A stretch of DNA of 587 nucleotides from Escherichia coli (GTDB lineage: Bacteria; Pseudomonadota; Gammaproteobacteria; Enterobacterales; Enterobacteriaceae): NCBI RefSeq assembly GCF_003334385.1, contig NZ_QOWN01000162.1; one strand, 5' to 3'. Below, one piece after another: positions 1 to 587 of this stretch (positions are counted from its first letter, which is position 1; the number at the start of each line of letters is the position of its first letter). Under the pieces are notes generated by a model. It was not told the origin of the DNA. It worked only from the letters and a program-made list of their open reading frames with translations, and ran no database searches. Position numbers and translations under genes: made by a program.

Positions 1-587
1 GCACTATGCGGATGCCATTCGTTATAATGCTCGAACGCCTCTGCAAGGTTCTTTGCTGCCGTTAACCCGTCTGGTTTGGGCATGACACTGATGTAGTCAC
101 GCTTTATCGTTTTCACGAAGCTCTCTGCTATGCCGTTACTCTCCGGACTCCGCACCGCCGTGTTCTTCGGTTCAAGCCCCAACATCCGGGCAAACTGCCG
201 TGTTTCATTAGCCCGGTAGCATGAACCATTATCCGTCAGCCACTCTACTGGAGACGCCGGAAGCTCGTTGCCGAAGCGGCGTTCCACCGCTCCTGGCATG
301 ACGTCCTGTACTGTTTCACTGTCGAAGCCGCCCGTAGTGACCGCCCAGTACAGTGCCTCACGGTCACAGCAGTCCAGCGCGAACGTGACTCGCAGTTTTT
401 CTCCGTTATCACAGCGGAACTCGAACCCGTCAGAGCACCATCGTTGATTGCTTTCTTTCACGGCCACTTTGCCAGTATATGCCCGCTTCGATGGCGGTAC
501 AGCGGTTTTTCGCTCAAGCAACAGCGCATTCTGGCGCATGATCCGGTAAACACGTTTGGCATTGATCGCAGGCATACCATCAAGTTC
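1..587 (-). CDS. insD: IS2 transposase OrfB (InsD), IS3-family DDE transposase/integrase catalytic domain; internal fragment, truncated at both ends by the window
   Basis: Minus-strand translation starting at position 587 is open for all 195 codons (plus 2 leftover nt at positions 2-1). It reads [196 protein letters not shown]. This matches IS2 InsD as I recall it, and it carries the retroviral-integrase-like W-x-x-D, TDNG and ES motifs. All three plus-strand frames are broken by stops within the first ~100 nt. Confidence 0.95.
1..587 (-). mobile_element. Insertion sequence IS2 (IS3 family), internal portion only; element ends lie outside the window
   Basis: The entire window encodes the IS2 orfB product. 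Because orfB is on the minus strand, the IS2 left end (IRL, insC/orfA, frameshift site) must lie beyond position 587 and the right end (IRR) beyond position 1. No inverted repeats or target-site duplications are visible in the window. Confidence 0.93.
102..431 (-). other. DDE catalytic core of the transposase: D at codon 429-431, D at codon 231-233, E at codon 123-125, conserved K at codon 102-104
   Basis: On the minus strand, plus-strand gtc at 429-431 is GAC (the D in WCSDGFEF), atc at 231-233 is GAT (the D in WLTDNGSCY), and ctc at 123-125 is GAG (the E in NGIAESFVK). There are 35 residues between the second D and the E, and a Lys sits 7 residues after the E (ctt at 102-104 is AAG). This is the IS3-family and retroviral-integrase DD(35)E signature. 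Which residues are catalytic is assigned by analogy to the HIV integrase 'QGVVES' region, not by experiment. Confidence 0.8.

Follow-up and report, generated by a model that had tools for sequence, protein, structure and literature searches.

The 587-nt stretch of Escherichia coli DNA analysed here (the window) is very probably the catalytic-core part of orfB (insD) from an IS2 copy of a common non-K-12 sequence type, a copy that in contig OAWT01000360.1 is a truncated relic. IS2 is a 1331-bp element of the IS3 family, among the best studied of all insertion sequences, whose OrfAB transposase results from a -1 frameshift at an A6G site and which moves by copy-out/paste-in transposition through a minicircle. 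Both the IS2 element and the sequence type of the window are already in public data, and there is no sign of a new mechanism.

Identity of the window and its differences from K-12 IS2

In a six-frame check, the minus strand of the window was found to be a single open frame of 195 codons. This frame (frame 1, minus) contains the peptide YISVMPKP and the others quoted in an initial annotation of the window; the other two minus-strand frames are stop-rich. The reverse complement of the window can be aligned, with no gaps, to nt 652-1238 of the K-12 reference element (IS2A of E. coli K-12 MG1655, NC_000913.3 381260-382590, insD1 b0361), corresponding to InsD codons 80-274. The insD frame continues past both ends of the window, which spans the entire integrase-type catalytic core. 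The translation matches the Pfam families rve (residues 45-148, E 2.6e-19) and rve_3 (residues 137-195, E 6.7e-14), and its top NCBIfam match is NF006918 'IS2 transposase TnpB' (444 bits, profile positions 80-274 of 301), the cut-off of 597 bits for this family being set for the whole protein, of which the window supplies 195 of 301 residues. A search of the window against Rfam for structured RNA gave nothing at the gathering threshold. Two other origins were considered and rejected: a plus-strand gene, the longest plus-strand ORF (59 aa) being antisense within insD and unsupported, and a phage origin, IS2 being present in nine phage records at a best identity of 98.3% and exact in none.

Lewis et al. 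(2011; PMC3219604) count residues in the fused OrfAB, naming W237, D240, D306 and E342. An offset of +108 converts InsD into OrfAB numbering, with W129, D132, D198 and E234 of InsD equal to these four residues. The positions in the window to which the text refers are as follows.

1..587, minus strand: internal part of IS2 orfB/insD, InsD codons 80-274 (OrfAB residues 188-382)
477..479, minus strand: codon 116, TAT (Tyr) against CAT (His) in K-12, the only private substitution
429..431, minus strand: first catalytic Asp, InsD D132 (OrfAB D240), codon gac, conserved
348..350, minus strand: codon 159, TAC (Tyr) against CAC (His) in K-12, OrfAB H267Y
294..296, minus strand: codon 177, CCA (Pro) against CTG (Leu) in K-12, a two-base change, OrfAB L285P
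231..233, minus strand: second catalytic Asp, InsD D198 (OrfAB D306), conserved
123..125, minus strand: catalytic Glu, InsD E234 (OrfAB E342), conserved

The WCSDG motif of the window begins at InsD 129, and the D, D(35)E triad is complete, D198 and E234 being 36 positions apart with 35 residues between them. The window thus has the same reading frame and the same DDE triad as K-12 IS2A.

An ungapped comparison with K-12 IS2A gives 25 nucleotide differences (95.7% identity), and comparison with K-12 InsD gives 11 amino-acid substitutions (94.4% identity): P107T, H116Y, R119K, C137R, R143K, H159Y, N168D, L177P, D187E, S190A and I247V. The initial annotation had suggested that a few residues, namely a P, an E, an A and a V, differ from K-12 InsD, and all four are real (L177P, through CTG to CCA, D187E, S190A and I247V). 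It understated the extent of the divergence about threefold, counting 4 of the 11 substitutions and missing P107T, H116Y, R119K, C137R, R143K, H159Y and N168D. It had also put forward a slightly diverged isoform of IS2, a proposal that complete identity to the K-12 element would have contradicted; the observed identities, 95.7% in nucleotides and 94.4% in amino acids, support such an isoform. Between the window and K-12, the Nei-Gojobori method gave dS = 0.113 and dN = 0.025 (dN/dS 0.22), which fits divergence under purifying selection and not decay or sequencing error.

Distribution and recombination of the non-K-12 IS2 type

Of 5,426 complete E. coli genomes, 4,428 have IS2-like matches, as do 3,671 plasmids from Escherichia, Klebsiella, Salmonella and Shigella; records with the non-K-12 IS2 type number hundreds to thousands across E. 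coli, Salmonella, Klebsiella and Shigella. None of the complete E. coli genomes or plasmids searched holds a record identical to the window. The closest are the chromosome of E. coli B771 (NZ_CP120557.1) and the plasmid pCFSAN083829_2 (CP070395.1), each 99.5% identical with 3 differences. The window shares with them T107, K119, R137, K143, Y159, D168, P177, E187 and A190, but H116Y occurs in the window only, and the copy in B771, at 1083069-1084399, is a full-length element flanked by a target duplication. As a side observation, the copy in pCFSAN083829_2 (fetched piece 4001-4587) carries W129C, equivalent to OrfAB W237C, at a residue where W237R abolishes transposition (PMC3219604); this copy is just a 680-bp 3' fragment, and hence appears to be another dead relic of the non-K-12 type.

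With even sampling down the ranking, identities to the window form an unbroken range between 99.5% and about 95%. The K-12 type, at 95.7%, comes about halfway down the ranking of IS2-bearing E. coli records, and therefore about half of these records hold a copy nearer to the window than K-12 is. The IS2 of K-12 is, by this measure, not representative of IS2 in natural E. coli. A variable-site matrix of 13 fetched copies showed that 24 of the 25 nucleotide differences from K-12 recur in other copies, and ten of the 11 substitutions belong to the widespread non-K-12 type. Several IS2 copies are mosaics, with blocks of K-12-type and of window-type sequence: the copy in 23CRST046 has 1 type switch, a number as low being seen in 0 of 10,000 permutations (P<1e-4), and the same permutation test gave P=0.0015 for SCU204 and P=0.006 for pT28R-2. 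The ten shared differences are very probably inherited standing variation of the non-K-12 type, which evolved under purifying selection and is shuffled among copies by recombination. Because the IS2 types recombine, individual substitutions are unreliable as lineage markers. The usefulness as a strain or plasmid lineage marker envisaged in the initial annotation is accordingly confined to H116Y and the truncation junction described below, which are lineage-specific, while the other ten substitutions are common and reassorted.

The names assigned by PGAP divide along similar lines, K-12-like copies being called 'IS3-like element IS2 family transposase' and window-like copies just 'IS3 family transposase'. 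These two names can mislead automated counts of IS2, with about half of the copies missed if the count is annotation-based. A literature search yielded no publication that describes these IS2 sequence types under a name. According to the ISfinder guideline, isoforms share more than about 90% nucleotide and/or about 95% amino-acid identity; the window is above the nucleotide value (95.7%) and just under the amino-acid value (94.4%), and was counted as falling within the guideline. The withholding of the IS2 name by PGAP and the amino-acid identity within the window might be read as signs of a separately named insertion sequence of the IS2 group, not an IS2 isoform. Such an origin is very unlikely, given that the nucleotide alignment has no gaps, that full-length relatives are likewise 1331 bp long, with terminal repeats that are nearly identical, that their InsD proteins remain 95.0-96.0% identical to that of K-12, that the identities form a continuum with free recombination with K-12-type IS2, and that the IS2 TnpB family NF006918 is by far the top family match.

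The truncated copy and its genomic setting

The substitution that sets the window apart, H116Y, results from C-to-T at IS2 nt 760, which is window base 479 (A on the plus strand, where the compared copies have G); C is present at nt 760 in 13 of 13 compared copies. Searches used a 61-mer centred on this base, TGCTTTCTTTCACGGCCACTTTGCCAGTATATGCCCGCTTCGATGGCGGTACAGCGGTTTT. It had an exact match in 0 of 20,395 E. coli records and 72,556 plasmids, the best match having one mismatch, and H116Y is absent from 5,426 complete E. coli genomes. The 61-mer was also unmatched in representative genomes of 100,044 species, and a 131-base pattern was unmatched there and in viral contigs. A metagenome scan with the 61-mer yielded one contig, OAWT01000360.1 (2,886 bp), of which positions 1333-1919 are exactly the reverse complement of the window.

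In this contig, positions 1287-2012 hold IS2 only from nt 606/607 to nt 1331, with the right inverted repeat intact and the same as in K-12 IS2A. Upstream of IS2 nt 606, the terminal repeat of an ISL3-family element directly abuts the IS2 sequence.

OAWT01000360.1 56-1288: ISEc38-like ISL3 element with a transposase ORF (NF033550, 261 bits)

The IS2 copy is without the left inverted repeat, orfA, the frameshift site and InsD codons 1-64, and differs from K-12 IS2A in being truncated at nt 606. The rest of InsD, codons 65-301, has kept its open frame and has two more substitutions beyond those in the window, R288Q and C290S. When compared with the features of a complete IS2, the copy was found to fall short, its left part being replaced by the end of the ISL3 element. 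On this structure, we infer that the copy in OAWT01000360.1 is an inert relic and not a working InsD gene.

Several side observations concern the sequences on either side of the IS2 fragment. The ISL3 transposase ORF encodes 380 aa (OAWT01000360.1 51-1193, minus strand), and the ISL3 model is matched over profile positions 1-257 of 370; the last ~77 residues (303-379) show a weak match to the N-terminus of the IS21-family model (NF033546, E 1.3e-9). The ISEc38-like match ends at position 56, beside the start of an IS4-family element on a longer 181-kb contig. Downstream of the right end of IS2, a 148-aa ORF (OAWT01000360.1 2375-2821, minus strand) belongs to a different IS3-family fragment; it aligns with the C-terminal third of NF033516, an IS3-family transposase model (162 bits).

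Looking up the truncated ISL3 protein uncovered the same arrangement in two more ENA assemblies, ERZ918693 (human gut metagenome, PRJEB6456) and ERZ27239696, where it lies at the end of the 181-kb contig. Their contigs are 100% identical to the window over the shared 368-376 bases, including base 479, and contain the same ISL3/IS2 junction, also 100% identical. H116Y is thus identical in three independent metagenome assemblies, and the base is therefore real and not a sequencing error. The explanation by sequencing or assembly errors, under which the window would be a canonical IS2 copy, has two points in its favour, the origin of the window in short-read metagenome assemblies and the presence of H116Y in no complete genome or plasmid. 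It is nevertheless exceedingly improbable: the 24 other nucleotide differences recur in finished genomes and plasmids, three separate ENA assemblies agree at 100% identity where they overlap, H116Y included, the frame of the window has no indels and no stop codons, and synonymous changes exceed non-synonymous changes per site (dN/dS 0.22).

It is likewise highly unlikely that the window comes from a variant IS2 that is intact and active at present, with a working transposase. The open frame, the complete DDE triad and the low dN/dS speak for such an element, and full-length variant copies elsewhere look functional, but IS2 is cut at nt 606 by the ISL3 element in every contig with the exact sequence. 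The 5' half of IS2 may still be present on the far side of the nested insertions, each of the three contigs ending within repeats.

The preferred reading, a truncated relic, is placed on the chromosome by the 181-kb contig, in which the order is IS2 fragment, ISL3 fragment, IS4-family element, hok/gef, cysH and cysI, and in which the flank at hok/gef-cysH-cysI is 100% identical to E. coli chromosomes. The right-hand part of OAWT01000360.1 is linked to the chromosome through overlapping identical repeat sequence. The relic would accordingly lie within a nest of insertion-sequence fragments on the E. coli chromosome at hok/gef-cysH-cysI, in human-gut metagenomes. H116Y and the ISL3/IS2 junction are the only features marking this gut E. 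coli lineage. The equivalent region of E. coli strain E2 contains IS421 and is situated between iap, a CRISPR array and cysH; insertion sequences appear to have landed repeatedly in this iap-CRISPR-cysH interval. In the E2 chromosome (NZ_CP104509.1, fetched piece 3461-6425), IS421, hok/gef and a partial integrase-core pseudogene come after the CRISPR array, and the annotation shows no cas gene in this interval.

Intact relatives and codons 159 and 177

Full-length copies of the variant type are 1331 bp long and align without gaps at 94.9-96.2% identity to IS2A. Their terminal inverted repeats are near-identical to those of IS2A and the A6G frameshift site is conserved. InsC is intact, with 0-1 of 121 residues differing, as is InsD, with 12-15 of 301 differing; the full-length InsD of the closest intact relatives is 95.0-96.0% identical to that of K-12. 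Direct repeats of 5 bp (aatgt, cattt and gccgt) flank the copies in B771, AR0085 and strain 144, which sit at different sites. The full-length relatives thus have every feature of a complete IS2 (both repeats, orfA, A6G, orfB and the 5-bp duplication), and share with K-12 IS2A its length, terminal repeats, A6G site and 5-bp target duplications. From these features, full-length copies of the variant type are predicted to be transposition-competent.

Apart from its truncation, the window differs from K-12 IS2A by H159Y, at an experimentally sensitive residue, and by L177P. A laboratory mutant with H267D in OrfAB formed unstable end complexes and its transposition was abolished (PMC3219604, Table 2). 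Residue 267 is in beta strand 3 and was termed non-conserved by the authors (PMC3219604). Y159 is common to B771, pCFSAN083829_2, pDY612-4 and the four full-length copies of plasmid pE94-5. P177 is a minority allele, rarer than Y159, and was found in B771, pCFSAN083829_2 and AR0085; a 61-mer for P177 was matched at 99% identity or more in 264 of the 5,802 matching E. coli records, and the 12 matches listed were exact over all 61 bases. L285P in OrfAB is six residues ahead of R291, a residue in alpha helix 1 that is important for end binding (PMC3219604). From this assignment of R291 (PMC3219604) and the canonical integrase fold, OrfAB residue 285 would be expected near helix 1. A search of solved structures gave no PDB sequence relative at E<=0.01.

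Both Y267 and P285 are probably tolerated, because Y267 is found in intact elements present in multiple copies and P285 in copies with target duplications. It is a doubtful but conceivable suggestion that the non-K-12 IS2 type is a natural activity variant, owing to Y267 and, in a subset that includes the window, to P285 as well. If that were so, Y267 and P285 could alter the grip of the catalytic core on the IS2 ends, shifting the transposition frequency relative to K-12. To our knowledge, all biochemical work on IS2 has used the K-12 element.

The enterotoxigenic E. coli (ETEC) plasmid pE94-5 contains three full-length copies of the variant type that differ by 0-1 nt, and a fourth that is full length and annotated as frameshifted (23798-27009 and 44054-45384 in one fetched piece and 11770-13098 in another). 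This 80-kb plasmid (NZ_CP119745.1) carries K99/F5 fimbriae and STa, and also has at least five IS2 fragments. The sta1 enterotoxin gene has two identical IS2 copies just upstream of it, inverted relative to each other and separated by about 550 bp.
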